In this document: positions 1 through 18,492 of the stretch, piece by piece
Numbering within the stretch: position 1 is the first letter of the stretch
How the letters are laid out: each line of letters opens with the position of its first letter
Source of the DNA: a virus
Taxonomy: Duplodnaviria; Heunggongvirae; Uroviricota; Caudoviricetes
Strand: one strand, 5' to 3'
Length of the DNA: 20,649 bases
Virus record (IMG/VR): IMGVR_UViG_2563366912_000001
Program-made: the position numbers and the translations under genes
Notes under the pieces: model-generated
Seen by the model: the letters and a program-made list of their open reading frames with translations, nothing else
Databases searched by the model: none
What the model was told of the DNA's origin: nothing

Positions 1-1188
1 GTGGCACGGACAACACGCCCCCTTACCAACACCGAAGTTCTTCGCGCTAAAGCGTTAGAGAAGGATCTAACTCTGCATGATGGCGATGGCCTTTTCCTGA
101 TAGTGAAAACCAGCGGGAAAAAGCTCTGGCGTTTCCGTTATCAACGTCCAGCGACAAAACAGCGGACAATGATGGGGCTTGGTGCTTTCCCCGCCCTTTC
201 ACTTGCTGACGCCCGAGGGTTAAGAGCGGATTACCTTGCCTTGTTAGCCAACGGAATTGACCCACAAATTCAGGCCGAAGTTGCAGAGGAACAGCAGCAA
301 ATCGCTCTGGACAGTATTTTCTCAATGGTCGCCGCTAACTGGTTCCAGCTCAAAAGTAAAAGCGTTACCCCTGATTACGCAAAAGACATTTGGCGCTCAT
401 TGGAGAAAGATGTATTCCCTGCCATCGGTGAGATCCCCGTTCAGCAAATTAAAGCCCGAATATTAGTTGAAGCATTGGAACCAATCAAAGCTCGTGGAGC
501 GCTTGAGACTGTACGTCGACTAGTGCAGCGTATTAACGAGATAATGATTTATGCCGTAAACACTGGTCTGATTGATGCCAATCCAGCATCAGGTATTGGA
601 ATGGCCTTTGAGAAGCCCAAAAAACAAAACATGCCGACGCTGCGGCCAGAAGAATTGCCGAAGCTGATGCGTTCTTTAGTCATGTCAAATCTGTCTGTTC
701 CGACTCGCTGTCTCATTGAATGGCAACTCCTGACGCTCGTGCGCCCTTCTGAGGCCTCTGGTGCCCGTTGGGCAGAGATCGATCTCGATACGAAGCTCTG
801 GACTATTCCAGCCGAACGGATGAAAGCTAAGCGGGAACACATTGTTCCTTTATCACCACAGGCATTAGAGATTCTGGATGTAATGAAGCCAATTAGCGCT
901 CACCGAGAACATGTTTTTCCCAGCAGGAATGATCCTAAACAACCTATGAATAGCCAAACTGCTAATGCTGCTCTTAAAAGGATTGGTTATGGCGGTAAAC
1001 TCGTTGCTCATGGGCTTCGTTCTATAGCTAGCACAGCGTTGAACGAGTCTGGTTTTAATTCCGATATTATAGAATCAGCTTTAGCGCATATAGATAAAAA
1101 TGAAGTACGGCGGGCGTATAATCGTTCTATTTATTTAGAACAACGCAGAGAATTGATGTCATGGTGGGGTATAAAAGTAAAATCATAG
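1..1188 (+). CDS. int: P4/CP4-57-family tyrosine integrase; GTG start at window position 1, so the true start may lie at or just upstream of the window edge
   Basis: 395-codon ORF. N-terminus MARTTRPLTNTE...DGDGLFLIVKTSGKKLWRFRYQRP matches the N-terminal arm of P4-type integrases. C-terminal region has H-x-x-R (VAHGLRS) and a Tyr-containing tail (RAYNRSIYLEQRRELMSWW). Confidence 0.9.
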   Translation: MARTTRPLTNTEVLRAKALEKDLTLHDGDGLFLIVKTSGKKLWRFRYQRPATKQRTMMGLGAFPALSLADARGLRADYLALLANGIDPQIQAEVAEEQQQIALDSIFSMVAANWFQLKSKSVTPDYAKDIWRSLEKDVFPAIGEIPVQQIKARILVEALEPIKARGALETVRRLVQRINEIMIYAVNTGLIDANPASGIGMAFEKPKKQNMPTLRPEELPKLMRSLVMSNLSVPTRCLIEWQLLTLVRPSEASGARWAEIDLDTKLWTIPAERMKAKREHIVPLSPQALEILDVMKPISAHREHVFPSRNDPKQPMNSQTANAALKRIGYGGKLVAHGLRSIASTALNESGFNSDIIESALAHIDKNEVRRAYNRSIYLEQRRELMSWWGIKVKS

Positions 1189-1204
1189 GGCTTTCGCCCT
1201 ATGA
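1183..1204. terminator. 9-bp stem / 4-nt loop hairpin between convergent int and the 99-codon ORF; candidate bidirectional terminator
   Basis: tcatagggc-tttc-gccctatga overlapping the int TAG stop, followed by T-rich sequence. Confidence 0.4.
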
Positions 1205-1212
1205 TTTAATAA

Positions 1213-1512
1213 TTATAAAGTTTCCAATGCGAAATTTCGATATCTCATTAGTGCATAAATATATCTAGTAGTAGATGCAGGTGTCCATGTTCTCTCAAGT
1301 TCTTTTGCTAGTGCTGCCCCCATCATTTTCTTATCATCATCGCCAAATTTATTTACATAAGCATTTAATATTTTGATAGCTGGAGATTCAGTGACTAACC
1401 TAGCTAAAGCCCTTTCAAGGCTGATGCTTTCTAATATAACTTCTATTTTATTATTTATCACCACACCATCATCTTGTCGAGAACAAAAACCTAAAGAAAT
1501 TAAATCCTGCAC
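1213..1512 (-). CDS. Hypothetical small protein (99 aa), downstream partner of the nuclease-NTPase gene
   Basis: Open frame in AT-rich DNA where stops are frequent; GTG start at 1510-1512 overlaps the 3' end of the upstream ORF by 13 nt (stop 1500-1502), same strand, suggesting co-transcription. No recognisable motif. Confidence 0.4.
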   Translation of the reverse strand: MQDLISLGFCSRQDDGVVINNKIEVILESISLERALARLVTESPAIKILNAYVNKFGDDDKKMMGAALAKELERTWTPASTTRYIYALMRYRNFALETL

Positions 1513-3446
1513 TGCATTCCTATGTTTATTCGCCTGAATGAATGGCTCATTTTTTTATTGGCGCACAGATACTCGGCAACTTCGAGTGTTTTTTCTGGCG
1601 AAGTAGCAGCTAAGAAAAGTGATCCTCTTCTATTGCGTGCCCCTCTTTTATCTAGATCAATCGCCCCAAATGCTGGGGAAAACAACTCGCCATCATATAT
1701 AACCACAGATTTCCCGATAACCGCTATCAGCCCCGTAAATTGTAACCAAGCCAATAATTTTGAACTATAAGACTTAGGATAACCACCGTCTTTATTCTTA
1801 TAAGTATGGGCTATTATAGATTCATACTTATCGATAGGAACTCTTCTTAAATCGGCATCAACAATATTCTCTGCCAATTCTAACAAAACACTATGACTCT
1901 TAAAATGCTCACGAAGAAACTCAGGGACATTTGTGATAGTCTGTTTACAAACTATATTCCCATTTAAATCTCTGTCTATGAGAACAAAATACTGCAAATC
2001 CATTAAAACATTTATTAATGTTCCCCGACTATATTTTAGTTTAGTTTGCAGTTCATCCAAGCTAATGGTTTTGAACGAGTTTACAACATCAAGAATTAAC
2101 AAAACCATTTTCGGAGATGTTGATGGCATATATGACCATGGTATAACTGGAAGGTCATTTCCTTTCAAGTAATCTCGAAAAACGTCCCAATACACTGATA
2201 ATTTTTCACCTGTTTTAATTACCATCCTATCTGAAATTAGCTCTAAAACAGTATCACTCCCAAACTCTTTAGTAACTTCATATTGACTAATCGGAGAGTT
2301 CTTTGCCACAAATTTTAAACATGAATTTTGTTTTTCAGGCCTATCTAAATCCTCATGAAATAAATTTGAGATCTGTAGTTGACTAACCAACATTTGATCC
2401 TGTGAGATACCTCCTTTTAGTTTTTTGAATACATGAATACAAAGCTTTTTCAATAACCATGGATAACCTTGAGCTTGCTGAATAAGACGCGTGCGTAAAG
2501 GTTTATTTAATTTAAACCCTGTATTTAGCTCGAAACTATTAATTAATTTAGATGAATCTTTTAGATCAAAAGGCTCAAGTTTCTTTTCAACCCTATAATC
2601 TTTTAGCCGATTCCACATTGAGTACGCTGGATTTTCATCCCCTAAAGTAATACCAGTTCTCCATGAGAACCCTACAACTAAATTGCTTTGTAGTGCCGAG
2701 ACATCGAGTGCGAATCGTTCAAATTCTTTAAATAGCCCGAATAGTTCCTCTTTCATAAAGACTTCTTCGAACTGATCAAAGAAAATAGTCAATACCTTAT
2801 CATGTTCGGAAAGGTATTTTAAACATTCCTGAACACTCTCAGATCCTATGATATCCGTAACACTCTCAATCAGGAATGGTTTTTCATATTCGATAAAACC
2901 TTCTTTGATCGCACTGCTGAAAGCTTTAACGACAGCTTCTGCCACAAAACGTCCGCCTCTAGCAGAACGGACATCGACTGGTGTAAGGAAGAATTTATTC
3001 TTCCATTTTTGATTTTTAAATCTTGAGGATAGCCTTGCTATTAAAGATGACTTTCCATTTCCTGAACCGCCTATAAGTGATAGGACTCTACTTTGAGAGC
3101 TATTTCCTCTAACATTCTCAAGATAATCCCAAACTTCTTTCTGTATATATTCGCGACCAACAAAGTCTTTCGGCTGACATGGCTTATAATCCATAAAATC
3201 GTCAGCAAGAATTATTTCACTGACAATTTCCCTTTCGTAATTTTCAGATAATTTTGAAGACGAAACAGTTTGTTCCGGTTCAGATAATATATAAAAATCA
3301 GTTACTTCCAACCCTTCAAAAAGCCCTTGCTCCTTTATAATATCACTTATGCGACTGACACTTGGAATTTTACTATTTTTATTTATAGCGAACGGCACCA
3401 CTCTTATAGGGCTACCATTTTCAACTTCTTGCAAAAGCCAAGTCAT
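1500..3446 (-). CDS. P-loop NTPase fragment (C-terminal ~80% of the interrupted gene; AAA+/STAND-like, family unassigned)
   Basis: 648-codon ORF. Walker A GGSGNGKS (LSLIGGSGNGKSSLIARL) and Walker B-like hhhhD (LTIFFDQFEEVF) about 90 aa later. Frame stays open upstream of the listed Met through 3447-3598 to the IS1 boundary. AT-rich. Confidence 0.7.
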   Translation of the reverse strand: MTWLLQEVENGSPIRVVPFAINKNSKIPSVSRISDIIKEQGLFEGLEVTDFYILSEPEQTVSSSKLSENYEREIVSEIILADDFMDYKPCQPKDFVGREYIQKEVWDYLENVRGNSSQSRVLSLIGGSGNGKSSLIARLSSRFKNQKWKNKFFLTPVDVRSARGGRFVAEAVVKAFSSAIKEGFIEYEKPFLIESVTDIIGSESVQECLKYLSEHDKVLTIFFDQFEEVFMKEELFGLFKEFERFALDVSALQSNLVVGFSWRTGITLGDENPAYSMWNRLKDYRVEKKLEPFDLKDSSKLINSFELNTGFKLNKPLRTRLIQQAQGYPWLLKKLCIHVFKKLKGGISQDQMLVSQLQISNLFHEDLDRPEKQNSCLKFVAKNSPISQYEVTKEFGSDTVLELISDRMVIKTGEKLSVYWDVFRDYLKGNDLPVIPWSYMPSTSPKMVLLILDVVNSFKTISLDELQTKLKYSRGTLINVLMDLQYFVLIDRDLNGNIVCKQTITNVPEFLREHFKSHSVLLELAENIVDADLRRVPIDKYESIIAHTYKNKDGGYPKSYSSKLLAWLQFTGLIAVIGKSVVIYDGELFSPAFGAIDLDKRGARNRRGSLFLAATSPEKTLEVAEYLCANKKMSHSFRRINIGMQCRI

Positions 3447-3589
3447 TTCTATTTCAGGATGAACTAAAAGTGTTGCACTAGTATATTTTGCCGGAATGTC
3501 ATCTGTTGGAATATCCTCAACCTTACCTGTTGCAAGTATAGATATAAGAATCTCTTTTTTATCAAAAAAAGAATAATCTATACGCTCAT

Positions 3590-3598
3590 CAAGTCTAT
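3590..3598. repeat. IS1 target-site duplication, left copy (caagtctat)
   Basis: Identical 9-mer immediately outside both IS1 ends. Confidence 0.9.
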
Positions 3599-3653
3599 GG
3601 TGATGCTGCCAACTTACTGATTTAGTGTATGATGGTGTTTTTGAGGTGCTCCA

Positions 3654-3929
3654 GTGGCTTCTGTTTCTATCAGCTGTCCCTCCTGTTCAGCTACTGACGG
3701 GGTGGTGCGTAACGGCAAAAGCACCGCCGGACATCAGCGCTATCTCTGCTCTCACTGCCGTAAAACATGGCAACTGCAGTTCACTTACACCGCTTCTCAA
3801 CCCGGTACGCACCAGAAAATCATTGATATGGCCATGAATGGCGTTGGATGCCGGGCAACTGCCCGCATTATGGGCGTTGGCCTCAACACGATTTTACGTC
3901 ACTTAAAAAACTCAGGCCGCAGTCGGTAA
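3654..3929 (+). CDS. insA: IS1 InsA (91 aa)
   Basis: Translation [43 protein letters not shown]... is the IS1 InsA zinc-finger/HTH protein. Confidence 0.95.
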
Positions 3930-4351
3930 CCTCGCGCATACAGCCGGGCAGTGACGTCATCGTCTGCGCGGAAATGGACGAACAGTGGGGCTATGTCGGG
4001 GCTAAATCGCGCCAGCGCTGGCTGTTTTACGCGTATGACAGTCTCCGGAAGACGGTTGTTGCGCACGTATTCGGTGAACGCACTATGGCGACGCTGGGGC
4101 GTCTTATGAGCCTGCTGTCACCCTTTGACGTGGTGATATGGATGACGGATGGCTGGCCGCTGTATGAATCCCGCCTGAAGGGAAAGCTGCACGTAATCAG
4201 CAAGCGATATACGCAGCGAATTGAGCGGCATAACCTGAATCTGAGGCAGCACCTGGCACGGCTGGGACGGAAGTCGCTGTCGTTTTCAAAATCGGTGGAG
4301 CTGCATGACAAAGTCATCGGGCATTATCTGAACATAAAACACTATCAATAA
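3848..4351 (+). CDS. insB: IS1 InsB frame (expressed as InsAB' transposase by -1 frameshift)
   Basis: 167-aa ORF ...[54 protein letters not shown]... overlapping insA in the -1 frame. Confidence 0.9.
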
Positions 4352-4361
4352 GTTGGAGTCA

Positions 4362-4727
4362 TTACCCAAGTCTATAATCCTCAAGCGTTGACTGAGCATC
4401 TTTACCCAAATCAGAAATTGAAAAAAGTGCAATTTTTTTAACTCTCAACCTAAATGCTTGAGAAAATGCCAAATCAACCACAGATGAATCAACTTTTTGC
4501 TGCATGAATTTACATTCTACATACAGCTTTTCATTTGATGGTGTATGAGTAGCCTGAATATCAATTTCCATGCCAGATTTTCTGACTTCCATACCATCAA
4601 TTCTATACGATTGCCGGCGGAGTATATCAGCGCAAAAATTCTCGAAAAACTTCCCTCTCGAGGTATTGGAATAATTACTAGGTACACAAACTATCAAATC
4701 TTTATTCAGTGGTAACGGCCTGGCCAT
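4362..4727 (-). CDS. Mrr-type PD-(D/E)xK restriction-endonuclease-like domain; N-terminal fragment of the interrupted nuclease-NTPase gene
   Basis: Motif GKFFENF...ADIL...SGMEIDIQA...KLYVECKF fits the Mrr catalytic core (D ... E-x-K). AGGAG RBS 7 nt upstream of ATG at 4727. ORF ends in a stop created by the IS1 terminus. Confidence 0.65.
   Translation of the reverse strand: MARPLPLNKDLIVCVPSNYSNTSRGKFFENFCADILRRQSYRIDGMEVRKSGMEIDIQATHTPSNEKLYVECKFMQQKVDSSVVDLAFSQAFRLRVKKIALFSISDLGKDAQSTLEDYRLG
4367..4375. repeat. IS1 target-site duplication, right copy (caagtctat)
   Basis: Identical 9-mer immediately outside both IS1 ends. Confidence 0.9.
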
Positions 4728-4847
4728 TTATACACTCCTTATCTCATATCCTTTTGACAAGTAAGATATCAACCTCGAGTTTCAGAAACCAGTATCTTGC
4801 GCATATTTACGACATCAAAACTTTTGGTTATGCACCCACAGCGCGCA

Positions 4848-4866
4848 GTGCTTTCCCCGCCTCGCC
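4848..4866 (-). other. cos site (19-nt cohesive-end sequence of P2/P4 type)
   Basis: Reverse complement of 4841-4866 is GGCGAGGCGGGGAAAGCACTGCGCGC, matching the P2/P4 cohesive end and adjacent bases as I recall them. Position between the cargo and psu matches the P4 map. Confidence 0.75.
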
Positions 4867-4969
4867 CGCCCGCTTTGCGGGGCGGTTTTAATGCAGTTGC
4901 ACTGACACGCTCAGACCGCGCCGGGAATGGTGCGGTCTGCAGAAAATGAGGCAGGAAAACGCATGCAAA

Positions 4970-5000
4970 GCCATGCACCTTATCGATGCATGGCTTTTTT
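4970..5000. terminator. Hairpin plus T6 just beyond the psu stop; candidate bidirectional terminator
   Basis: gccatgca-(9 nt)-tgcatggc followed by tttttt on the + strand and preceded by an A-run as seen from the minus strand. Confidence 0.4.
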
Positions 5001-5030
5001 CAGTAAAAACGGGAGGATTTTCGGGGAATT

Positions 5031-5603
5031 TTACACAGACTGACGTGATGCCAGTTGCGCACTTTTACGCGAAAAAATCATGTTCTGCGCAGGGGTGAAT
5101 TTTTCACGGCTGTCATCCACCGAAGCCGCGTCAGGCCTGAATCCGATGGTCGTTAAAATGTCACTATCCTGTGCGGAATAATTAATTTTTTCCCCCTTCG
5201 CAAGCCAGGACAGAAGGGCTTCACGCAGGGCATCTGTGGCACGCTGTATGGCACAGTTTCGGGCAATGGCCGTCAGCTCACTGTAGCCCATCAGCTCCGG
5301 TGCCAGTGCCGCCGCCAGTGCTGTGCCGTGCTGCTGCATAAAATCATTCAGCCGGTCGCGGATGCTGATGTGCTGAACGGCTTCATGCGAACGAATATAA
5401 CGACCGGCGGCCTGATTCACCTGCCATTTTCTGACTTCGATAATATTGCGTAATTCGTCCAGGCGACTGACGTTTCTGCCTTCTCCTGACTGAATCCGCA
5501 GATATTCCTGTTCGGCCGCAGCCAGCTCATTTTTGCGTTGCAGCCATGCTGCTTTGTTATTCTGACAGGTGTCAAAGGCCTGCTGTAAGGCTGTGCTTTC
5601 CAT
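5031..5603 (-). CDS. psu: P4 Psu-like polarity suppression protein (190 aa)
   Basis: Length matches P4 Psu (190 aa); last gene of the sid-delta-psu late operon arrangement. Confidence 0.85.
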   Translation of the reverse strand: MESTALQQAFDTCQNNKAAWLQRKNELAAAEQEYLRIQSGEGRNVSRLDELRNIIEVRKWQVNQAAGRYIRSHEAVQHISIRDRLNDFMQQHGTALAAALAPELMGYSELTAIARNCAIQRATDALREALLSWLAKGEKINYSAQDSDILTTIGFRPDAASVDDSREKFTPAQNMIFSRKSAQLASRQSV

Positions 5604-5676
5604 CGTTATCTCTTTCTCATCATGCTGAAGAATAAAAATACGGTGTGCGGCGACGGCCGGTGTTAACCGGCAGCCC

Positions 5677-6177
5677 TCATTCCAGACGCAGCGAATATGA
5701 TTGTGTTTTTAACCGTACTGGCGGCAGTTCCTGTTTTTCATGCAGACTTTCTGCAAGCTCGTCCGGCGTGACCGGGCGGACAATGAAGCGGTTGATGGTC
5801 TGAAGCGTTTTAAACACCAGACCACAGCCCGGATCCGTGCACACATAAAAACGCTCGGTGACTTCCTGAGACAGACGCCGCGATGTTCTTGACAGCGCAA
5901 GGCCTTTACATCTCCGACAACAATATCCGGTAACAAGCATTCTTTTCGGGCGCTTCATGCTGCCGGAGGCTGACGTCAGTGAATCGCGGTATCTCTGTTT
6001 GCCTGAAATGTATTCCATTCCTGAATCTTTACAGTCAGAGAAAAAGCTTTCACTCGCTTCAAATGTCGCAGAGCAATAAATATTCCGGCACTGTGCAATC
6101 ATTATCTTGGTGCCATCGTCCATGAAATGTGCGCGACGGGTGTGAGCAACATGTCCACACGACGGGCAGTAAATCAT
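5677..6177 (-). CDS. delta: P4 Delta-like late transcription activator (tandem Ogr-type zinc fingers, 166 aa)
   Basis: Two Ogr-like modules: CPSCGHVAHTRRAH...C..IYCSATFEASES and YCCRRCKG...VCTDPGCGLVFKT. Length equals P4 Delta. Start overlaps the sid stop. Confidence 0.9.
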   Translation of the reverse strand: MIYCPSCGHVAHTRRAHFMDDGTKIMIAQCRNIYCSATFEASESFFSDCKDSGMEYISGKQRYRDSLTSASGSMKRPKRMLVTGYCCRRCKGLALSRTSRRLSQEVTERFYVCTDPGCGLVFKTLQTINRFIVRPVTPDELAESLHEKQELPPVRLKTQSYSLRLE

Positions 6178-6908
6178 GACAGCAGTCCTCTGGCCTTAAG
6201 CTTTGCTCCCTGCTGGTCTATTTTGTCCTGCCACACCTTGCGCTGTGCCGGTGTGCCTGCCACCTCATAATCCATGTGCGGGAGTGTTGCCGCTGACAGT
6301 CCGGTCAGCCGGAGAACCGGCTCGCCGGTGAGGCTGATTTGCATCTGTTTTATTTTCTGTTCCAGCGATGATTTCACCTGCTGCATGACAGCCTTTTCCG
6401 GTGCGACGTAGCCCTGATGGCCGGTGGTGTTGGCGAGCGGATTTTCCTGTACCAGGATGCTCAGATGCATTGCCCGGACAAGCGCCTCACAGGTTTCATT
6501 CAGGGCGTGTTCCAGCTCATGCTCTGCATACAGACTCAGCAGGTGATGATGTGCCTTCCGGTAGGCGGTGGCCGTGCTGTCACACGCCCCTTTCAGGCGT
6601 TCGCGTTCAAAATTCAGCACCACGGCCAGATTGTCATATTCCTGTACCAGCTCCCGGCGTGCCACGCGCTCAATGTGGCGCTGTTTCAGCTCGTCGCTCA
6701 GGACACCACCGGCTGCACGAAAGGCCGTGCGCCAGTCGTCAGCGTCGTTTCCGTCGGCCTGCGCCAGCGCATTTTTTTCCTGCTCTGCCCGTTCAATGGC
6801 CGTGACGGTCTCATCCATCAGGCGGGCGTTCTCAAGATGGGCGGCTCTGGCCTTTTCCAGTTGTGCCAGTGCGGGTTTCAGATATTCAGGGATAGTGTGG
6901 TCAGACAT
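6174..6908 (-). CDS. sid: P4 Sid-like capsid size-determination protein (244 aa from ATG at 6908; the track's longer form uses GTG at 6926)
   Basis: ATG at 6906-6908 is preceded by AGGAG with 7-nt spacing and gives MSDHTIPEYL..., 244 aa as in P4 Sid. Helix-rich, charged protein. Confidence 0.85.
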   Translation of the reverse strand: MSDHTIPEYLKPALAQLEKARAAHLENARLMDETVTAIERAEQEKNALAQADGNDADDWRTAFRAAGGVLSDELKQRHIERVARRELVQEYDNLAVVLNFERERLKGACDSTATAYRKAHHHLLSLYAEHELEHALNETCEALVRAMHLSILVQENPLANTTGHQGYVAPEKAVMQQVKSSLEQKIKQMQISLTGEPVLRLTGLSAATLPHMDYEVAGTPAQRKVWQDKIDQQGAKLKARGLLS

Positions 6909-6942
6909 TTTCCGGCTCCTCGTCACTTCAGGTTAAGAAAAT

Positions 6943-6998
6943 TGTGACGTACACCGGACAGCAACACGACGCATTGCAGATGTGCCAGCCCTGACACA
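6943..6998. promoter_or_regulatory. Divergent late-promoter region with two TGT-N12-ACA dyads (Delta/Ogr-responsive; Psid leftward and PLL-like rightward)
   Basis: TGT-gacgtacaccgg-ACA at 6943-6960 and TGT-gccagccctgac-ACA at 6981-6998, directly upstream of sid. Confidence 0.5.
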
Positions 6999-7077
6999 GG
7001 AGACTCATCCTCACACCGGCAAGCCAGGAAAAGGTCGCAGGAAAAACCGGCTTACTGTTTGTTTTTTTATATTTTAC

Positions 7078-7181
7078 TGTTCACCTCTGTTCACCTTAAT
7101 AAAAAAGATAAGTAATACAGTAAGTTAAAGGATGAACAATCGCAGTAATGACTGTTCACCGTCTGTTCACCACTGTTCACC
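7078..7181. repeat. ori-like cluster of TGTTCACC type-I iterons (alpha-binding repeats)
   Basis: Five direct TGTTCACC copies (7078, 7088, 7153, 7164, 7174) plus an imperfect inverted copy near 7132; AT-rich flanks. Confidence 0.6.
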
Positions 7182-7460
7182 CGCTCATGGACTTTTTGTG
7201 CTGTTTACTACTGTTTGTTTTTATTAATTCGCCGGGAATGAATAAGAAGAAACGATTTGTATTTCACTATAAAAATTACAAATTGCTTTAAGTGGCTTTA
7301 AATGACTTTAAGTGGAAATGAACAAAAAACACACAACCATTGTAAGGCTGCCGGAACAAATCCCCCCTGTTGCGTCTGCTGAAAATATTCACAAAATAAA
7401 GCGCTACCCGAAGCCGGACGGACTTATCCGGTGCTGTATGGACATTAACGAGGTAGCCCG

Positions 7461-7727
7461 ATGCAAGCTGTTTTTTCTTCCCCGTCTCCCGCCCCTGTGA
7501 CGCCACTGATGCCGCTGCCGGACATCACACAGGAGCGTTTTTTACGTCTTCCGGAAGTGATGCACCTGTGCGGCCTGTCACGCTCGACCATCTATGAACT
7601 CATCCGTAAGGGGGAATTTCCGCCGCAGGTGAGTCTTGGCGGTAAAAATGTGGCCTGGCTGCACTCTGAAGTCACCGCATGGATGGCCGGCCGCATTGCC
7701 GGACGCAAACGGGGGTACGACGCATGA
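7461..7727 (+). CDS. AlpA/Vis-family small DNA-binding regulator (prophage excision/late-promoter regulator; start uncertain, alternative ATG at 7509)
   Basis: ...[51 protein letters not shown]... is the AlpA-type HTH signature. Sits as first gene after the PLL-like promoter, as P4 vis does. Confidence 0.7.
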
Positions 7728-7821
7728 TGATGCCTGTTCTGCAAAAAGTCCCTTTTTCTGGCTTGCCTTTTTCCGGCATTTGCGGATATAGTTTTTCCGC
7801 TGCCGCAAAATCGGCAGCCGG

Positions 7822-7847
7822 GCGTGAGAACCCGTGTAACTCGAAGG
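7822..7847 (+). promoter_or_regulatory. seqA-like target element of the P4-type RNA immunity system
   Basis: gcgtgagaac...ctcgaagg repeated at 8065-8106 and complementary to 8020-8040. Confidence 0.35.
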
Positions 7848-7855
7848 CGACATAT

Positions 7856-7877
7856 GACGCGCCATGCGTCTTTTTTT
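7856..7877 (+). terminator. Intrinsic terminator-like hairpin in the early-operon leader (candidate immunity terminator)
   Basis: gacgcgccatgcgtc stem-loop followed by T7. Confidence 0.5.
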
Positions 7878-7939
7878 GTGTCGCAATCAACGCCACAGAG
7901 CGCCAGATTATGGTGTGGCGTGTGGTTTGCCGTGCAGGT

Positions 7940-8060
7940 ATGATCCTGTTCGCAATCGCATGTTATGCCACTGAGTCAATGGTAGCTCAGGCGGGGCAGC
8001 CTCCGGGCTGGCCGGTATTCTTCGAGGCCGGTATTCTCACCCCCGTCTGGGCTATCGCCA
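7940..8060 (+). ncRNA. Candidate CI-like immunity RNA region containing a seqB-like element (8020-8040); boundaries approximate
   Basis: Structured GC-rich non-coding stretch between the leader terminator and the next RBS. cttcgagg...attctcac is the complement of the seqA/seqC motifs. Contains a tRNA-like GGTAGCTCAG segment. Confidence 0.3.
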
Positions 8061-8064
8061 TCGA

Positions 8065-8106
8065 GCGTGAGAACTCCGGCGATAGCAGTTATTTGCTACT
8101 CGAAGG
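8065..8106 (+). promoter_or_regulatory. seqC-like element overlapping the RBS of the 65-codon ORF
   Basis: gcgtgagaac...ctcgaaggagg; the AAGGAGG RBS for the ATG at 8117 lies inside the repeat. Confidence 0.35.
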
Positions 8107-8116
8107 AGGCTGCCTT

Positions 8117-8314
8117 ATGGCTACAACCCTTACCCCCTCACACCCTGAATTTGTCTTTGTGTTTGCGGCTGTCCGTCGCGCAGACCGTCATCCCCGTATC
8201 TGCATGCTTCGCACCGTCGCCGGTGATGAACGCAGCGCCCGCCGTTCCCTTGTCCGTGACTATGTGCTCTCCCTTGCTGCCCGTCTGCCGGTGGTGGAGG
8301 TGTCCCGTGCGTAA
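8117..8314 (+). CDS. Small early-operon protein (65 aa; possible kil-like gene, function unassigned)
   Basis: AAGGAGG 7 nt upstream of the ATG. The track's longer 211-codon form has no support upstream. Confidence 0.5.
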
Positions 8315-8594
8315 TAAAAAAGCCCCTCAGACCGTCTCAGCACGTCATGACGCCCGTGAACACCTCAGCATTGAGGCTTACCATAAGCTCAACCGCGCCA
8401 GCGCCGTATCCCAGTTTGTTGGGGGTGATTTGATTCACCGTGAACTCTCCGGCCTGCATCAGCTCTACATTCCGCATATTTTCAGCTACCTGAATGAAGA
8501 TATTGATTTTGTGCTGAATGAGCTGAAAGCCAAAGGCCTGTGCCGCGATTTTCTCGCCCAGCAGAAAGACCGGGGAGACAGGACGCATGTTTGA
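8307..8594 (+). CDS. Small early-operon protein (95 aa; candidate epsilon-like derepressor)
   Basis: GTG start with GGAGG 6 nt upstream; start overlaps the preceding stop and its stop overlaps the next start (ATGTTTGA). Confidence 0.5.
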
Positions 8595-9042
8595 TTTTCC
8601 CCAGCCCGGTGAGATTTACCGTTCTGCCGGTTTTCCCGATGTGGCCGTGGTCGGCATTCTGGAAGACGGTATTCCGTGGGAAATGCCGTACCGCTGCCCG
8701 GACATTGTCTGGAACCCGTACCGCCGTAAATTCAGTATCCTTGTGCGTATCCTCGATGACGGGCGCACCACAGACATCCCGCTGGGGCGTTTTCTGCGGG
8801 AATTTACCTGTGACCGTCCTGACCTGTTTAAACGCAGCCCCGTAAACCGGCATGCGGTACTGAAAGAAATGGCCGGAGACCCGGAATTACAGAAATGGCG
8901 GGAGAAATATCTGGATATTTACCCGCAGGACACTGTTCCGGCCAGCCGGGCGGCACCGGTGGCGCGGGAATGGCGGGAAATTCCCCGCACGGAGCCTGAC
9001 CCGGAAATCACCCCGGATAACAGTTACCGCAATTATCTGTAA
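8587..9042 (+). CDS. P4 orf151-like hypothetical protein (151 aa)
   Basis: Translationally coupled to the upstream ORF; same length as P4 orf151; typical codon usage. Confidence 0.55.
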   Translation: MFDFPQPGEIYRSAGFPDVAVVGILEDGIPWEMPYRCPDIVWNPYRRKFSILVRILDDGRTTDIPLGRFLREFTCDRPDLFKRSPVNRHAVLKEMAGDPELQKWREKYLDIYPQDTVPASRAAPVAREWREIPRTEPDPEITPDNSYRNYL

Positions 9043-9177
9043 TTAAAAAACGATACCCGAAAAATTAAATGTGCGTATTCGCGCAGGGATACGCACGTCT
9101 TCAGGAGACGCAGATATGCCTTATCAGTTAATGCAACCGGCACGGAATGCAGTCATCTGTCACAGGGAGGAAAACAA

Positions 9178-9498
9178 ATGAAAACACCCTTACCGCCCGT
9201 CTTACGCGCTGCCCTTTACCGTCGCGCTGTCGCCTGTGCCTGGCTGACCGTGTGCGAACGTCAGCACCGCTACCCGCATCTCACCCTTGAGTCACTGGAG
9301 GCGGCCATCGCCGCTGAGCTGGAAGGCTTTTATCTGCGCCAGCACGGTGAGGAAAAAGGGCGTCAGATAGCCTGTGCCCTGCTGGAAGATTTAATGGAAT
9401 CCGGCCCCCTGAAGGCCGCGCCGTCGCTGTCCTTTCTCGGGCTGGTTGTGATGGATGAACTCTGTGCCCGTCACATAAAAGCGCCGGTACTGCACTGA
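9178..9498 (+). CDS. Hypothetical early-operon protein (106 aa)
   Basis: GGGAGG RBS upstream of the ATG; lies directly upstream of the primase gene. Confidence 0.55.
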
Positions 9499-11343
9499 AG
9501 GAGAACAACACCATGAAAATGAACGTAACCGCCACCGTCAGCCATGCGCTCGGCCACTGGCCGCGTATTCTCCCGGCGCTGGGGATTCAGGTGCTGAAGA
9601 ACCGTCATCAGCCCTGTCCGGTCTGTGGCGGGAGTGACCGCTTCCGTTTTGATGACAGGGAGGGGCGTGGCACCTGGTACTGCAATCAGTGTGGTGCCGG
9701 TGACGGCCTGAAACTGGTTGAAAAGGTGTTTGGTGTTTCCCCGTCCGACGCGGCCGCAAAGGTGGCTGCCGTGACCGGCTGCCTGCCCCCGGCTGACCCG
9801 GCAGTGACGGCCGCCGCCGGTGCTGAAACAGAAGCCGCCCGGAAGAACGCCGCCGCACTGGCACAAACCCTGATGGCAAAAACCCGTCCCGGAACCGGTA
9901 ACGCCTACCTGACCCGCAAGGGCTTTCCCGGCCGGGAATGCCGGATGCTGACCGGCACACACAGAGCCGGTGGCGTGAGCTGGCGCGCCGGTGACCTTGT
10001 GGTGCCACTGTATGACGACAGCGGCGAACTGGTTAACCTTCAGTTAATCAGTGCTGACGGCCGTAAGCGCACCCTGAAAGGCGGACAGGTCAGGGGCACC
10101 TGTCACACCCTTGAAGGACAGAATCAGGCAGGAAAACGTCTGTGGATAGCGGAGGGATACGCGACCGCACTTACCGTGCATCACCTGACCGGTGAAACGG
10201 TGATGGTGGCGCTTTCTTCCGTGAACCTCCTTTCTCTGGCCAGCCTTGCCCGACAGAAGTATCCGGCCTGTCAGATTGTCCTTGCCGCAGACCGTGACCT
10301 CAGCGGTGACGGCCAGACAAAAGCCGCCGCAGCCGCAGATGCGTGTGAGGGCGTTGTTGCCCTGCCGCCGGTCTTCGGTGACTGGAATGATGCCTTCACG
10401 CAGTACGGCGGGGAGGCCACCCGTAAGGCCATTTACGATGCCATCCGGCCACCGGCTGAAAGCCCGTTCGACACCATGAGCGAAGCGGAGTTTTCCGCCA
10501 TGAGTACCAGCGAAAAGGCCATGCGTATCTATGAGCATTACGGCGAGGCGCTCGCGGTTGATGCCAACGGCCAGCTTCTGTCCCGCTATGAAAATGGTGT
10601 CTGGAAGGTGCTGCCACCACAGGACTTTGCCCGGGATGTGGCCGGGCTGTTTCAGCGTCTGCGCGCGCCGTTCTCCTCCGGGAAGGTGGCCTCCGTGGTG
10701 GACACCCTGAAGCTGATTATTCCGCAGCAGGAAGCCCCCTCCCGCCGCCTGATTGGCTTTCGTAACGGCGTGCTCGACACGCAGAACGGCACGTTCCACC
10801 CGCACAGTCCGTCACACTGGATGCGCACCCTGTGCGATGTGGATTTCACCCCGCCGGTGGACGGTGAAACACTGGAGACCCACGCCCCCGCGTTCTGGCG
10901 CTGGCTTGACCGTGCCGCCGGTGGCCGTGCGGAAAAACGCGACGTGATTCTGGCCGCACTGTTTATGGTGCTGGCAAACCGCTACGACTGGCAGCTCTTT
11001 CTGGAGGTGACCGGTCCCGGCGGCAGCGGCAAAAGTATCATGGCCGAAATAGCCACCCTGCTGGCTGGTGAGGATAACGCCACGTCGGCCACCATCGAGA
11101 CGCTGGAATCCCCGCGTGAACGTGCCGCGTTAACTGGCTTCTCACTGATACGCCTGCCGGACCAGGAAAAATGGAGCGGCGACGGAGCCGGACTCAAGGC
11201 CATCACCGGCGGCGATGCGGTGTCCGTTGACCCGAAATACCGGGATGCGTACTCCACGTGCGTATTACCGTGAAGGAGATCGGTGAGTAACATCGATGGA
11301 GATCGGTTCGTGTCACTTTCACAGAACCGTTTTTAAATTACCT

Positions 11344-12093
11344 TCACTGATCTCCTTCGGTCAACGGAGATTGTATTTTCCGCATTGATTCTCCTTTAAG
11401 TTCGATCTTGATACTGCCATGAACCAGTCGATCTAGGATGGCATCCGCATGTGTGGAGTCTCCGATCATTTTGTACCAGTTTTCCACCGGCAACTGGCTC
11501 ACTACGATGATTGAGCCTCGTTGGTACATCAGATCCACTATTTCCAGCAGGTCGCTACGCTGTTCTGATGAGAGAGGTTCCAGCCCCCAGTCATCCAGAA
11601 GCAGCAGATCGCTATTATTCAGCCTGGTCAAAAGTTTGCTGTATCTTCCATCAGCATGCCCCTGATAGCACTGTTCCATCAGCGCTTTAAGGCGATAATA
11701 GTAGACCTTGTATCCCTGTCGGCAGGCATTATGACCAAGTGCACATGCCAGGAACGTTTTACCGCTGCCGGTGGCCCCGGTCAGTAAAATATTTTGTTTC
11801 AGGGTTAACCAGTTTCCCTGACTGAGTGAACGGATGAGGGCCCTGTCCAGCCCTCTATTGTTACGATAATCCAGCTTTGATAACTCAGCATTAAGTCTGA
11901 ACCGTGCATGTTTGATCAGACGCTCTGCCTTCCTGTTTTCACGGCAGGTTAGTTCTTCTGCTGTCAGTAATGACAGGCGTTCTTCGAAGCCCAGCTCCTG
12001 GTATGTGCCCGGCTGAGCAAGTTGCTTTTTAAGCGCATCACGGAAGCCGGTGAGTTTAAGTGCGGTCAGTTGTTCGTAAAGATGATTCATCAT
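11344..12093 (-). CDS. istB: IS21-family IstB helper ATPase (249 aa)
   Basis: Walker A LLTGATGSGKTFLACALG and Walker B LLLLDDWG; gene follows istA with an 11-nt gap. Confidence 0.9.
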   Translation of the reverse strand: MMNHLYEQLTALKLTGFRDALKKQLAQPGTYQELGFEERLSLLTAEELTCRENRKAERLIKHARFRLNAELSKLDYRNNRGLDRALIRSLSQGNWLTLKQNILLTGATGSGKTFLACALGHNACRQGYKVYYYRLKALMEQCYQGHADGRYSKLLTRLNNSDLLLLDDWGLEPLSSEQRSDLLEIVDLMYQRGSIIVVSQLPVENWYKMIGDSTHADAILDRLVHGSIKIELKGESMRKIQSPLTEGDQ

Positions 12094-12104
12094 TGGATCC
12101 CGTA

Positions 12105-13646
12105 TCAGTGGTAATACTCACTGCCGCGTACGTTTTCGTGTTCCATCGTGGATAACAGATCTGGTTTTGGATCCTGAACAGGTTGTTTATCCAGACCTTT
12201 TTCCAGGATCGATTTAATACCTGACAGACGCCATACCTTTGTTTTCAGAGCTCTTGCACATGCTGCATTAAGTCTGGCTTTACTGTATTTTTTATGAAGG
12301 TTCAGGAGTCCAAGGCAGAAGCGATAGCTTTGTTCCGGATGTGGACGAGAGTTCAGTATATGAAGCACATAACTATGAGTTTCACTGCCTATGTGCCCCG
12401 CCCATTCCAGAAGACGCTCTGGCGTCCAGGTGGCATGCTGTCGATGAGCTTCAGGCATGTGCTCGTTGCGGGTACTGTAGCCATAAGTACGCTTGCGCGG
12501 GTGCACAGCAACCTCCTGCCCCTGATTGAAGAGTCTTACCAGTTCTCCGGAGATCCATGCTTCCAGTTGCTGGCCTAACAGCGAACATGGAACCGAGTAG
12601 TAATGTTTGTCGATTTCCACGTGGTAATCGGCATGAACTCTGACTTTCTTCACCAGGGTGTAACTGTAACTGGCTTCAGGAAGAGGCTTCAGTGCGGGTT
12701 TATCAAGCTGGATGAAGAGTTCTGCACGTGAATAACCCAACTTCTGCATTATTTTGTTATTCAGTCTTTCCAGCAACTCCCGAATGCGCTGATTAAGCGA
12801 TGCAAGGCTGTAGAAGATCTCATGCCTGATTCGGGCCATGATCCAGCGTTCAACAACCTGAACGCCAACTTCAGCTTTGGCTTTATCTTTCGGTTTACGT
12901 GGCCGCGCAGGCAAAACTGCGACATTATAATGCTCAAGCATCTGCTGGTAGGTAGGGTTAACGTCAGGATCATACTTACATGCCCTGGATGTGGCGCTTT
13001 TCAGATTGTCCGGAACAACAAGTTCAGGAACGCCACCCAACCACTGGAAGCAGCGAACATGACTCATCACCCAGTCTTCAAGATGCTGAGACCAGGTGGC
13101 CTCTGCCCATGTGTAACTTGATGCCCCGAGAACAGCTACGATGACCTGAGCAGTTCTTATTTCTCCGGTCTCAGGGTCGGTAACGCCAACGGTAGGTCCA
13201 CAGTAATCAACGAAAAGTTTTTCGCCAGCTTTATGTACCTGACGCATTGATGGTGAAGTGGTTTTGAGCCATTCACGGTACATCCGGCAGTAATGGTTAT
13301 AGCTGTAAAAACCGCCTGGATTACGCTCACAGTATTCTTCCCAGAGTAGCTGCAGCGTCACGCATTTATTACGCAGTTCCCGGTGTACTGTAGCCCAGTC
13401 AGGCAGAGAGTGCTTCTTCATCTTAACCTGGGTCTGAAGGAACGCATGTTTTAGTTTTGTATCATCCCATCCTGTAGGTAAGGGCCACTGCTTTATGCCA
13501 AGTTGAGCCGCCCGATTAGCATATCTGGATACAACGGAAGGGGAGATTGCAAGACTACGACCAATTTGTCGATGGCTGAGTCCAACACCGTATTTAAGCC
13601 TAAGAATTTCTTTAAGTTTTCTCATAGAAATTGGAACTGTTGGCAT
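12105..13646 (-). CDS. istA: IS21-family IstA transposase (513 aa)
   Basis: N-terminal HTH (LSHRQIGRSLAISPSVVSRY) followed by an integrase-core-like region; AAGGA RBS; paired with istB. Confidence 0.9.
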   Translation of the reverse strand: MPTVPISMRKLKEILRLKYGVGLSHRQIGRSLAISPSVVSRYANRAAQLGIKQWPLPTGWDDTKLKHAFLQTQVKMKKHSLPDWATVHRELRNKCVTLQLLWEEYCERNPGGFYSYNHYCRMYREWLKTTSPSMRQVHKAGEKLFVDYCGPTVGVTDPETGEIRTAQVIVAVLGASSYTWAEATWSQHLEDWVMSHVRCFQWLGGVPELVVPDNLKSATSRACKYDPDVNPTYQQMLEHYNVAVLPARPRKPKDKAKAEVGVQVVERWIMARIRHEIFYSLASLNQRIRELLERLNNKIMQKLGYSRAELFIQLDKPALKPLPEASYSYTLVKKVRVHADYHVEIDKHYYSVPCSLLGQQLEAWISGELVRLFNQGQEVAVHPRKRTYGYSTRNEHMPEAHRQHATWTPERLLEWAGHIGSETHSYVLHILNSRPHPEQSYRFCLGLLNLHKKYSKARLNAACARALKTKVWRLSGIKSILEKGLDKQPVQDPKPDLLSTMEHENVRGSEYYH

Positions 13647-14450
13647 AGGTATCCTTTACCGGAATGGCAAAAGATACAGATCAACACACCTGTGAAGTTC
13701 CAATAACATTGATGGAGATCACTGAATAACAAAATGAGTCAAAAGTGATCTCCATCGATGTTATTCAGCGATCTGTTCAAATGTTATTACCCGATCTCGA
13801 TGGAAGTTATTGAGTGATCTCCTTTCATGAAAATACGCACTCCACGCACATCCCGGCGGTAATTCTGGCCGTGAACAATAACCCGATGCGCTTCACCGAC
13901 CGCAGCGGCGGCGTGTCACGCCGGCGGGTGATTATTCACTTCCCGGAACAGATAGCCCCGCAGGAGCGCGACCCGCAGCTTAAGGACAAAATCACCCGCG
14001 AGCTGGCGGTCATCGTGCGTCACCTGATGCAGAAGTTCAGCGACCCGATGCTCGCCCGGTCACTGCTTCAGTCCCAGCAGAACTCAGACGAGGCACTGAA
14101 CATCAAACGGGATGCCGACCCGACGTTTGATTTTATCGGCTATCTGGAAACCCTGCCGCAGACCAGCGGCATGTATATGGGGAACGCCAGTATCATCCCG
14201 CGTAATTACCGTAAATACCTCTATCACGCCTATCTGGCCTACATGGAGGCAAACGGCTACCGGAATGTACTCAGTCTGAAAATGTTCGGGCTGGGGCTGC
14301 CGGTGATGCTGAAGGAATACGGACTGAATTACGAGAAGCGCCATACCAAACAGGGGATACAGACCAACCTGACGCTGAAAGAGGAAAGCTACGGCGACTG
14401 GCTGCCAAAATGTGACGACCCTGCAACAACCTGACCATCATGACTCATCT

Positions 14451-14474
14451 GACCGGCATCTGCCGGTCTTTTTT
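14451..14474 (+). terminator. Rho-independent terminator after alpha
   Basis: gaccggca-tc-tgccggtc followed by T6, 17 nt after the alpha stop. Confidence 0.6.
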
Positions 14475-14483
14475 CATCCCTGA

Positions 14484-14797
14484 ATCCCCCGAAGGTGAAC
14501 AATCCAGTGTTCACCCTTCACCGTATGTTCACCCGTTATCACACTGAAATCAAAAGAGAAAAACGAAAGGTGAACAGTGTGAACAATCAAATCAAAAAAA
14601 ACTTTTTTTCTTCCTGTGTGATTTTCAGTGCGGAGGATTAATCGCCGGTATGAGTCACACCGGCAGAATGCCGGAGGTGAAGAATCGAATGTTCACCCTT
14701 CACCCATTATTCACCACCTATCCAACTGAAATAAAAGGAAAAAACAGAAAGGTGAACAGTGTGAACAGTTCTTCCGAAAAAAAATTTTTTTCCTGTA
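14484..14797. repeat. crr-like cis replication region: two ~125-bp direct repeats, each with TGTTCACC/GGTGAACA iterons
   Basis: Copy 1 about 14484-14608 and copy 2 about 14674-14797 share gaaggtgaa...atgttcacccttcacc...aaaggtgaacagtgtgaaca...A/T runs. Confidence 0.65.
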
Positions 14798-15077
14798 CGA
14801 TATAGCATCAATCCAAGTAAAAATGCGCTTTCATTTCACATTAACTTACAGCCATTGGTATACGATTAGGTATACGCACAAAAACTGAATTAAACAAAAT
14901 CATTAAAAATCAAAGCAATACAATATTTATTCAAACTCCGCCAGCCAATCATGATTGGACGGTATAAGGACAACACCAATAAAAACAGGAAGTTAGCAGT
15001 CTCAGCAGGACACCGACCAGACGGTGAAGAGACATAAAAGGATACGCAAAGGAGCCGCGGCTCCTGGTGACATGAAA

Positions 15078-15098
15078 GCCCACAGATGTGGGCTTTTT
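15078..15098. terminator. Hairpin plus T5 downstream of the autotransporter fragment; candidate bidirectional terminator
   Basis: gcccac-agat-gtgggc followed by ttttt, 10 nt from the stop at 15108. Confidence 0.45.
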
Positions 15099-15107
15099 CG
15101 TTGATGG

Positions 15108-18100: not shown

Positions 18101-18492
18101 CCTATATCTTGATATCCACCAGATTCAATAAGACTTCCATTAGATACCCCGCCATGAACATTCTGCTGGCCATGGTTGATAATATGAGTGTTATTTGTTG
18201 TACCTCGTTCATCCACTTTTTGGTTGCCATCTACAGTCTCATCGTTTACCACACCAATAACATCAGGAGTGAAGGCCGCCATACCGGGCGGGGCATATAT
18301 CAAGGCAGATATCAATAAGGAAAGTACTGAGCGGCGACAATAATGGGGACTGGTCCTGTTCATAAATTTCATCCTCTGAAAAGTGAATACTGAGTAGCGT
18401 TTAAGCGACCTTAGCTCTGCTGCAACATCAGCCCACAGGCACCAGACCAGGGGATTCATCCTGAAGAGACAGCGCAAGTGTATTGTGTTCAC
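15108..18492 (-). pseudogene. AIDA-I-type autotransporter adhesin, disrupted: passenger ORF (15463-18492, probable start near 18363-18372) and beta-domain C-terminal ORF (15108-15434) in different frames
   Basis: Extended signal peptide MKFMNRTSPHYCRRSVLSLLISALIYAPPGMAA. About 900 aa of degenerate beta-helix repeats (TTINGG.Q..). C-terminus ...LGVGYSHGAGVESPWNGVAGVNWSF is a beta-barrel terminal strand. Frames separate at a C5/G5 tract (15474-15478). Translocator portion looks too short for a 12-strand barrel. Confidence 0.75.

Follow-up and report, generated by a model that had tools for sequence, protein, structure and literature searches.

The window analysed here, a stretch of 20,649 nucleotides of DNA from a tailed-phage record, carries between positions 7822 and 8106 two copies of a bipartite repeat, with a segment complementary to both lying between them. 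The question raised by this arrangement is whether the locus encodes an RNA-based immunity switch like that of satellite phage P4 and, if so, which one. In a P4 lysogen the transcripts from promoter PLE end prematurely, and the CI RNA, which comes from the same untranslated transcript, pairs with seqA upstream and with seqC downstream (PMC4825925, PMC3632133). A sequence-only reading of the window had proposed a P4-style module of repeated targets, complementary internal element and leader terminator at this place. We have asked how close that likeness is, which parts of the locus are conserved as RNA, and what its target sequences predict about specificity.

Identity of the locus and its repeats

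Compared with the P4 genome (NC_001609), window 4867-14790 aligns at 97.7% identity over ~7.3 kb (36% of the query), in two pieces that are separated by an insertion of ~2.6 kb; in blastn against phage records, positions 7400-8400 match satellite phage P4 at 94.5-95% identity. The window is collinear with NC_001609 through psu, delta, sid, ORF88, cI, epsilon, orf151, orf106 and alpha, and the P4 record itself lists ORF88, the old cI ORF, epsilon, ORF151, ORF106 and alpha in this order. Pfam and NCBIfam models recognise psu, delta, ORF88 (AlpA family), an Icd-like protein of 65 residues, epsilon, DUF5375 and a primase, with epsilon, orf106 and alpha identified by Pfam. The immunity locus sits in the P4 left operon, downstream of PLE, with ORF88 on one side and epsilon and alpha on the other, and the historical 'cI gene' annotation of P4, an ORF given as 'cI gene product (AA 1-137)', spans the same bases. 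We conclude from sequence that window 7763-8314 is the PLE leader with the cI immunity region of P4 itself, and that the element hosting it is a P4 prophage in an Escherichia-type genome. The proposal of a P4-style module was therefore borne out, and more closely than it was worded: the alignment, together with the Rfam matches given below, makes this the P4 immunity region itself, and P4 cI falls exactly at this locus and not elsewhere.

An identical 346-nt leader is present in many complete E. coli genomes, among them that of strain RM7190 (NZ_CP015244), and homologues occur in 1045 of the 5426 complete genomes of this species, at up to four places per genome. RefSeq annotation over the immunity sequence consists of the 'Icd-like' CDS only, and PADLOC, run on the hotspot proteins, reported no known defence system. 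The prophage in the window is probably replication-defective, because an IS21-family element interrupts alpha at ~11258-13839; with alpha split and replication probably lost, the immunity switch may control nothing useful in this particular copy.

The repeats that define the locus are exact. The 20.6-kb window contains exactly two copies of GCGTGAGAAC (7822-7831 and 8065-8074; 0.01 copies expected) and likewise of ACTCGAAGG (7839-7847 and 8098-8106; 0.13 expected), and 0/100 shuffles reached two copies of either, which rejects chance as their origin. The two direct copies at 7822-7847 and 8065-8106 that had been read from the letters are thus confirmed. The internal segment claimed to be complementary to both is confirmed too: TTCTCAC at 8034-8040 pairs 7/7 with both GTGAGAA copies, and TCTTCGAG at 8019-8026 pairs 8/8 with both CTCGAAGG copies, one G-U pair included. 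A repeat finder recovered both direct pairs, as well as inverted repeats I1 and I2, through which 8027-8049 is connected to both copies. Following the P4 nomenclature, the repeated and complementary parts are:

7822-7847, + strand: seqA, the upstream target (repeats, complementarity, covariation with seqB)
7822-7831, + strand: a1 box, GCGTGAGAAC, pairing core 7824-7830
7839-7847, + strand: b1 box, ACTCGAAGG, pairing core 7840-7847
8019-8040, + strand: seqB, the antisense determinant within the CI RNA (Rfam structure line, fold, covariation with both targets)
8019-8026, + strand: b', TCTTCGAG, in the loop of the major hairpin
8034-8040, + strand: a', TTCTCAC, in the single-stranded joint before the stalk
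8065-8109, + strand: seqC, the downstream target (repeats, covariation with seqB)
8065-8074, + strand: a2 box, GCGTGAGAAC
8098-8106, + strand: b2 box, ACTCGAAGG, pairing core 8099-8106, overlapping the kil Shine-Dalgarno

Leader, CI RNA and the start of kil

The transcribed part of the locus begins directly downstream of ORF88 with a promoter, a leader that ends in a terminator, and the gene for the antisense RNA:

7461-7727, + strand: ORF88, AlpA/Vis-type regulator directly upstream, the ORF88 of P4 (Pfam Phage_AlpA, E = 7e-21)
7763-7792, + strand: PLE promoter, -35 TTGCCT at 7763-7768 and -10 TATAGT at 7787-7792 (promoter scan; presumed active)
7799-7877, + strand: PLE leader, 'seqA RNA' or IsrK-like RNA (Rfam isrK, c4-a1b1, fold)
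7856-7877, + strand: intrinsic terminator of the leader (terminator scan; 3' hairpin of the isrK model)
7975-8062, + strand: cI gene, giving the CI RNA, of the C4 antisense RNA family (Rfam C4, fold, covariation)

PLE is the sole match of the promoter scan within 7300-8700. The -10 hexamer of PLE falls on the feature that P4 record X02534 labels 'consensus -10', the sequence being the same in P4, and transcription probably starts near 7799. From that position the Rfam family isrK (RF01394) matches on the + strand over its whole model (1-77 of 77, at 7799-7876) with 70.7 bits against a gathering threshold of 50, and c4-a1b1 (RF03163) matches 7786-7838, also on the + strand and 137 nt upstream of the C4 match, with 50.4 bits against 46.7. 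In the predicted fold, the leader consists of a 5' hairpin (7799-7818), a hairpin with a1 in its loop (7819-7834), the b1 box and the terminator, and the leader hairpins are 99.7-100% paired across 73 relatives (see below).

The terminator is made of the hairpin GACGCG-CCA-TGCGTC at 7856-7870 (six pairs, four of them G-C, and a 3-nt loop), followed by T7 at 7871-7877. It is kept in 73/73 relatives, with one compensatory pair (G-C to C-G, in 10 sequences), and it already forms in the MFE fold of the leader alone. The sequence-only reading had called it a strong hairpin plus T7; both elements are present, but the stem has only 6 bp and, because it is so short, the terminator is better called canonical than strong. 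We take it to be the P4 terminator t1. This terminator, between PLE and cI, is reportedly stimulated by CI and seqA in an autoregulation of CI (Briani et al., in 2000).

A spacer of ~100 nt separates the leader terminator from the CI RNA. Rfam C4 (RF01695) matches 7975-8062 on the + strand with 74.3 bits (gathering 45; E = 4e-13; model 1-87 of 87). P4 itself gives C4 and isrK matches above gathering at the corresponding positions, and its Rfam scan listed no c4-a1b1. Positions 7975-8062 fold at -48 kcal/mol (z = -5.35), and 0/200 shuffles fold as well. The fold comprises a 16-bp stalk (7981-7996 with 8041-8056), of which GGTAGCTCAG is the 5' strand, a minor hairpin (7997-8010) and a major hairpin (8011-8032), with the bases G-CCA at 8057-8060 directly 3' of the stalk. 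Across the 73 sequences the stalk is 100% paired, with four compensatory pairs, and both CI hairpins are 100% paired as well.

Processing of the P4 CI RNA by RNase P is documented (PMC5499578). From the stalk, the G-CCA and this P4 work, we infer that the CI RNA of the window copy would likewise be matured by RNase P. The mature form should be an RNA of ~80 nt with predicted ends at ~7981 and 8060, not 7940-8060, the stretch from which it had been expected. A tRNA-like segment had also been described here and linked to RNase P. A tRNA or tRNA-like gene is rejected, since ARAGORN finds 0 in the whole window; what stands of that description is the RNase P signal, namely the 16-bp stalk followed by G-CCA. 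The 'structured non-coding stretch' fared similarly: its structure is real, as the z-score indicates, but it is not purely non-coding, given that an open reading frame crosses it. The coding features and one further structure are:

8117-8314, + strand: kil, first translated gene after PLE, 65 codons, Icd-like (NCBIfam NF033153 phage_ICD_like, E = 1.6e-21)
7724-8314, + strand: eta ORF, 196 codons, three consecutive ATGs at its start (open frame; Pfam Phage_ASH PF10554)
8051-8086, + strand: alternative hairpin of 8051-8059, the 3' strand of the CI stalk, with 8078-8086, holding a2 in its loop (inverted repeat I6)

The Shine-Dalgarno sequence AAGGAGG at 8103-8109 overlaps b2 and stands 7 nt before the ATG at 8117, in agreement with the earlier claim that the second repeat copy lies over the AAGGAGG of the 65-codon ORF. 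We take this ORF (8117-8314) to be kil, whose name and toxicity reportedly go back to Forti et al. in 1999. It is nearly identical to kil of P4, and its RefSeq name is 'host cell division inhibitor Icd-like protein'. The longer ORF (7724-8314), in frame with kil and spanning seqA, cI and seqC, is presumably the P4 gene eta, which has 197-199 codons in P4; eta is said to be translated only from PLL transcripts (again Forti et al., 1999). Pfam Phage_ASH matches its residues 22-143. The alternative hairpin forms 9/9 pairs, and in relatives 99.2% of its cells are paired, with three compensatory pairs. It shares the 3' strand of the stalk, so that alternative hairpin and CI stalk are predicted to be mutually exclusive.

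Covariation and the proposed mechanism

Relatives of the locus were collected by anchoring on ORF88, with 42 loci from bacterial assemblies (one genome per species) and 80 from IMG/VR. The 122 fetched loci yielded 73 distinct leaders, which were aligned, and pairs were counted on the named structure. Three loci (L033, L034 and L124) were missed by blastn with the C4 of the window, yet Rfam detects C4 and isrK in all three, which add another 'b' allele; the no-hit loci L036 (698 bases) and L043 (325 bases) were left out of this Rfam follow-up. Among the 73 leaders, 6/7 pairs of a1:a' are changed on both sides (99.8% of cells paired) and 6/8 of b1:b' (98.8%), and the downstream target behaves in the same way, with 6/7 pairs of a':a2 (100%) and 6/8 of b':b2 (98.1%). 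Compensatory changes are thus found at 12/15 pairs for seqA:seqB and at 12/15 for seqB:seqC. As a control, sliding the partner by one to three columns lowered pairing to 32-52%, and 0/500 shuffles reached the observed pairing or covariation score. The covariance analysis that the sequence-only reading had named as a check therefore supports it: seqA:seqB and seqB:seqC complementarity has been conserved through compensatory change, at 98-100% pairing.

These data bear on a reading in which the repeats are a by-product of coding, i.e.: peptide motifs of Eta or of the 'Ash' family (PF10554), with incidental complementarity. The ORF behind this reading is genuine. Its 196 codons run through the region and match Pfam Phage_ASH, and in 102/105 distinct relatives the frame of kil remains open over 357 nt or more upstream of the ATG; in the two alternative frames, a stop comes at a median distance of 30 and 129 nt. 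Yet the variable sites alter amino acids freely and keep Watson-Crick complementarity among the three sites, with compensatory changes at 12/15 pairs for either target; a shift of the partner by a single column makes the pairing collapse, and covariance models that score structure match strongly. We find a coding origin of the repeats hardly credible and have rejected it: the substitutions keep the pairing, not the peptide. The eta ORF is still real and conserved, and the PF10554 match probably reflects the conserved RNA.

With P4 identity, RNA families, structure, complementarity with covariation, and overlap with the ribosome-binding site all seen here, we are highly confident that the locus is the immunity region of a P4 satellite prophage, with a PLE transcript, a CI RNA and pairing at seqA and seqC. 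From published P4 work we take over the processing of the RNA, the dependence on CI of termination at t1, t4 and timm, and the block of kil translation; the switch would then operate as follows. PLE, being constitutive, would give one transcript holding seqA, t1, the cI RNA, seqC and kil. RNase P would recognise the stalk and the 3' G-CCA, cut the cI segment at its 5' end and leave a stable CI RNA of ~80 nt. Two short stretches of this RNA would be exposed, b' within a hairpin loop and a' in the single strand next to it, and these would pair with a1/b1 and a2/b2. On seqA, the CI RNA may increase termination at t1, so that CI synthesis would be self-limited; on seqC, it would mask the ribosome-binding site of kil, leaving kil untranslated. 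Transcription would halt ahead of the genes for epsilon (helper derepression) and alpha (replication), the satellite would stay quiescent, and the cell would be immune to elements sharing the a/b sequences. In P4, t4 and the Rho-dependent timm sit downstream of cI. Translation of kil reportedly prevents termination at timm, a masked ribosome-binding site leading to termination (Forti et al., 1999), and the kil/timm region of the window is nearly identical to that of P4.

The leader itself could have another role. In the Salmonella prophage Gifsy-1, a locus of the same layout (IsrK/STnc1160/orf45-anrP-antQ) has an isrK leader that runs to a Rho-independent terminator, followed, as here, by a complementary, processed C4-like RNA. 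There, translation of the long isoform is switched on by the short RNA, and antiterminator expression follows (Hershko-Shalev et al. 2016, PMC4825925). IsrK is a structural homologue of P4 seqA, as C4 is of CI (PMC4825925, PMC3632133). By analogy, the leader RNA 7799-7877 might be the main regulator, acting in trans to open the long transcript or titrate the CI RNA and thereby activating translation of the downstream ORFs, and being a target of repression would not be its chief role. The leader indeed matches the Rfam isrK model over its full length (70.7 bits), and a free seqA RNA could sequester the CI RNA as a sponge, given the complementarity of seqA and seqB. In Gifsy-1 it is the translation of orf45-anrP that the short RNA activates, with the C4-like STnc1160 located downstream (PMC4825925), and in a transposon study the IsrK-like element of P4-like prophages was required in S. 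Typhi (PMC3632133). However, the genetics of P4, which is 95% identical here, make seqA a CI target that promotes termination (PMC4825925), and seqA:seqB covaries just like seqC:seqB, which fits a target or decoy and not an activator with its own mRNA site. We therefore regard IsrK-type control of this locus as unlikely. The IsrK-type role and the CI-target role of the leader are compatible with each other, the IsrK-type part being minor.

The opposite simplification would be a P1-type switch, in which only the translation block at a2/b2, together with Rho-dependent polarity, carries regulatory weight, and a1/b1 and the terminator carry none. The layout is that of P1 and P7, where a1b1, c4 and a2b2 follow each other, with a2b2 over the icd ribosome-binding site, and kil is Icd-like. 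Natural recombinants also exist (L112 and L063), in which seqA mismatches seqB and seqC still matches, suggesting that matching of seqA is less essential. Against this, the covariation of a1/b1 with a'/b' is just as tight as that of a2/b2 (98.8-99.8% paired), and this covariation, together with a terminator in 73/73 leaders, indicates selection on the upstream interaction too. We consider a switch of the P1 type alone quite unlikely, and retain the P4 scheme with both targets.

Specificity alleles and known systems

Base by base, the window and P4 agree fully or almost fully in the CI stalk and hairpins, in the terminator and in kil. Differences from P4 are a 9-nt in-frame deletion, carried by the eta ORF, clustered substitutions at ~7938-7975, upstream of cI, and two offsetting 1-nt indels near seqC. 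The 'a' boxes are identical, whereas the 'b' box is another allele at all three sites (CTCGAAGG / CTTCGAG in the window vs TTCACAGG / CCTGTGAA in P4), which probably places the window copy outside the P4-homoimmune specificity group:

seqA b site: AATTCACAGG in P4, AACTCGAAGG in the window
seqB b site: CCTGTGAAG in P4, TCTTCGAGG in the window
seqC b site: TATTCACAGGAGG in P4, TACTCGAAGGAGG in the window

Since the 'b' half-sites of seqA, seqB and seqC have all changed in a matching way, an altered immunity specificity is predicted. In line with this, the predicted b-box duplex of the window CI RNA reaches -12.9 kcal/mol with its own seqC vs -3.7 kcal/mol with that of P4, and -11.5 kcal/mol with its own seqA vs -1.7 kcal/mol with that of P4. 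Judged from its boxes, the window copy is probably a specificity variant, heteroimmune or half cross-immune with P4.

Such changes are widespread among the relatives. The 73 leaders contain at least six 'a' alleles (GTGAGAA, GTAGGAA, GTGGAAA, TTTGCAG, TTAGCAG and TTGGCGT) and about ten 'b' alleles (CTCGAAGG, TTCACAGG, TCTAACGG, GTTATCGG, TCCATCGG, CTCAATGG, TTCAAGG, ACTATGG, TTATTGG and ACATTGG), in at least 26 combinations among the 73 distinct leaders, and seqA, seqB and seqC vary in concert. The GG at the 3' end of 'b' is invariant; it is the start of the Shine-Dalgarno. Predicted duplexes separate cognate from non-cognate partners at both boxes, with means of -13.3 vs -6.0 kcal/mol for b':b2 and of -9.3 vs -3.5 kcal/mol for a':a2. 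On balance we lean slightly toward the view that P4-like satellites carry a combinatorial two-box RNA 'immunity code' and that the window element is heteroimmune or half cross-immune with P4.

When two elements reside in the same genome, they differ in both boxes in 5/5 pairs, which were paired by hand. These co-resident pairs fit the idea that the code decides which satellites coexist; with no more than five pairs, the argument is weak.

The large genomic surveys of P4-like satellites that we searched leave the immunity RNA unmentioned, and the main text of PMC8628076 holds no words starting with 'RNA'. On P4 immunity, a review of Rho and a review of phage sRNAs contain nothing past c4 and IsrK. 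The principle itself has been published for P1 vs P7 and for P4 vs phiR73, so that the code would be a modest extension and not a new mechanism. Heteroimmunity of phiR73 and P4 is said to lie in their different seqA, seqB and seqC sequences (Sabbattini et al., 1996).

The closest known system is P4 itself, dissected since 1992 (Dehò, Ghisotti, Forti, Sabbattini, Briani et al., 1992-2002), which has the same locus, promoter, leader hairpins, terminator and flanking genes. The c4 system of P1 and P7 belongs to the same Rfam families (RF01695 and RF03163), has the same order of a1b1, RNA and a2b2 on one transcript, and shares with the P4 system an RNase P-processed RNA and an a2/b2 placed over the ribosome-binding site of an Icd-like gene. 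Citron and Schuster reportedly described it in 1990 as an antisense RNA that targets a1/b1 and a2/b2, upstream of icd-ant. The genes under control downstream are epsilon and alpha in the P4 system, in contrast to an antirepressor, and blastn of the window against P1 detected no DNA similarity. The documented output in P4 is premature termination at several sites (PMC4825925). The C4 part of the window (~7979-8087) aligns at 76-83% by blastn with phiKO2, PY54 and related Klebsiella phages. In phiR73 and in the N15-type phages (N15, phiKO2 and PY54), related processed antisense RNAs have their own targets, on other backbones and with other genes under control.

The P4 RNA immunity system at this locus is already known, and Rfam recognises all three of its RNA parts; as the type example of a known system, the locus has small discovery value. 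Its use is in part for annotation, where RefSeq shows only the Icd-like CDS and a Pfam family, 'Ash', overlies the RNA region. For comparative work, it offers a clean natural case of three-way compensatory evolution between an antisense RNA and two targets. For the biology of satellites, allele combinations could predict mutual exclusion among P4-like elements.

Signs of recombination within the immunity region

The three pairing sites of the immunity region, seqA, seqB and seqC, match one another as a rule, and we found natural exceptions to this three-way match in four relative loci: L112 (1847-2171), L063 (1847-2171), and L070 and L062 (1838-2162). At L112, the b1 box of seqA is of the P4 type while b' and b2 are of the window type. 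At L063, seqA belongs to one type and seqB and seqC to another, a pattern suggestive of recombination between seqA and cI, the gene of the CI RNA. The 'b' boxes of L070 and L062 mismatch one another at all three sites, and the eta frame, which runs across the whole region, is broken in L070; these two therefore look like decaying copies.

The spacer directly upstream of cI (window 7938-7975; columns 165-225 of the alignment of 73 distinct leaders) exists as two haplotypes, differing by a 9-nt in-frame indel and about 15 substitutions. Among E. coli-type elements these haplotypes assort independently of the sequence variants ('a' and 'b' alleles) of the pairing sites: L061 and L105, for example, have a common 'b' allele and different haplotypes. 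This independent assortment indicates that recombination is frequent inside this region of 300 nt.

The cI gene itself holds an exact 12-nt direct repeat, GGCCGGTATTCT, at 8010-8021 and 8026-8037, annotated as 'direct repeat 4/4'' in the P4 record X02534. The same GCCGGUAU context precedes both b' and a', a hint that the recognition module underwent an internal duplication long ago. We also found a conserved hairpin (8051-8059 with 8078-8086) that joins the 3' strand of the CI stalk to downstream sequence and leaves a2 in its loop. It covaries, with three compensatory pairs and 99.2% pairing. This alternative hairpin and the mature CI stalk exclude each other, so the hairpin may be relevant to the transcript before processing or to the downstream terminator.

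An interrupted prophage and its flanks

Genes outside the immunity region are as follows.

Features of the hotspot, the interrupted alpha gene and the far flank
1-1188, tyrosine integrase (hotspot)
1500-3446, - strand, nSTAND/AAA_16 NTPase, 648 aa (hotspot)
3848-4351, IS1 transposase (hotspot)
4362-4727, - strand, Mrr_cat nuclease fragment, 121 aa (hotspot)
11258-13839, ORFs on - strand, IS21-family element interrupting the P4 alpha primase/helicase gene
11344-12093, - strand, IstB of the IS21-family element, 249 aa
12105-13646, - strand, IstA-like transposase of the IS21-family element, 513 aa
15108-15434, - strand, AIDA/Ag43-like autotransporter, beta-domain fragment, 108 aa (past 14790)
15463-18492, - strand, AIDA/Ag43-like autotransporter, passenger ORF, 1009 aa (past 14790)
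19276-20649, - strand, DUF5507/DUF5508 protein (past 14790)

The IS21-family element, 100% identical to a segment of several 'PhiR12' E. coli phage records, splits alpha into two pieces (9513-11273 and 13814-14434), and the prophage is therefore probably replication-defective.

Positions 1-4866 correspond to the integrase-to-psu 'hotspot' of the P4-like element; this stretch has no P4 match among the matches listed, and PADLOC identified no known defence system in it. The Mrr_cat nuclease fragment may have been truncated by IS1. At the other side, P4 homology stops at 14790, where the prophage probably ends; no tRNA gene was detected by ARAGORN in the entire window. Past this point lie the autotransporter, which appears to be split into a passenger ORF and a beta-domain fragment, and the DUF5507/DUF5508 gene, suggesting a second island in tandem (14790-20649).

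Co-residence, spread and detection

Elements from one genome, as judged by a shared IMG genome id or assembly, differed in 'a' and 'b' alleles alike in 5/5 pairs (L074/L119, L005/L010, L012/L018, L025/L033 and L034/L037), but the pairs are too few and the allele diversity is too high for significance; L074 has the exact allele of the window. Of 5426 complete E. coli genomes, 1045 carry a homologue of the 346-nt leader, and the copy number per genome reaches four. The only RefSeq feature under these matches is an Icd-like CDS; annotation of the C4 and IsrK RNAs is thus missing there.

The marker for epsilon, the helper-derepression gene, in a large survey of P4-like satellites was PF10554 (PMC8628076). 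In the window, the eta ORF (7724-8314), the translated seqA-cI-seqC RNA region, has its Pfam PF10554 ('Phage_ASH') match at residues 22-143, whereas epsilon (8307-8594) matches PF25738 ('Derepression') instead. The PF10554 marker of that survey therefore actually detects the immunity region.
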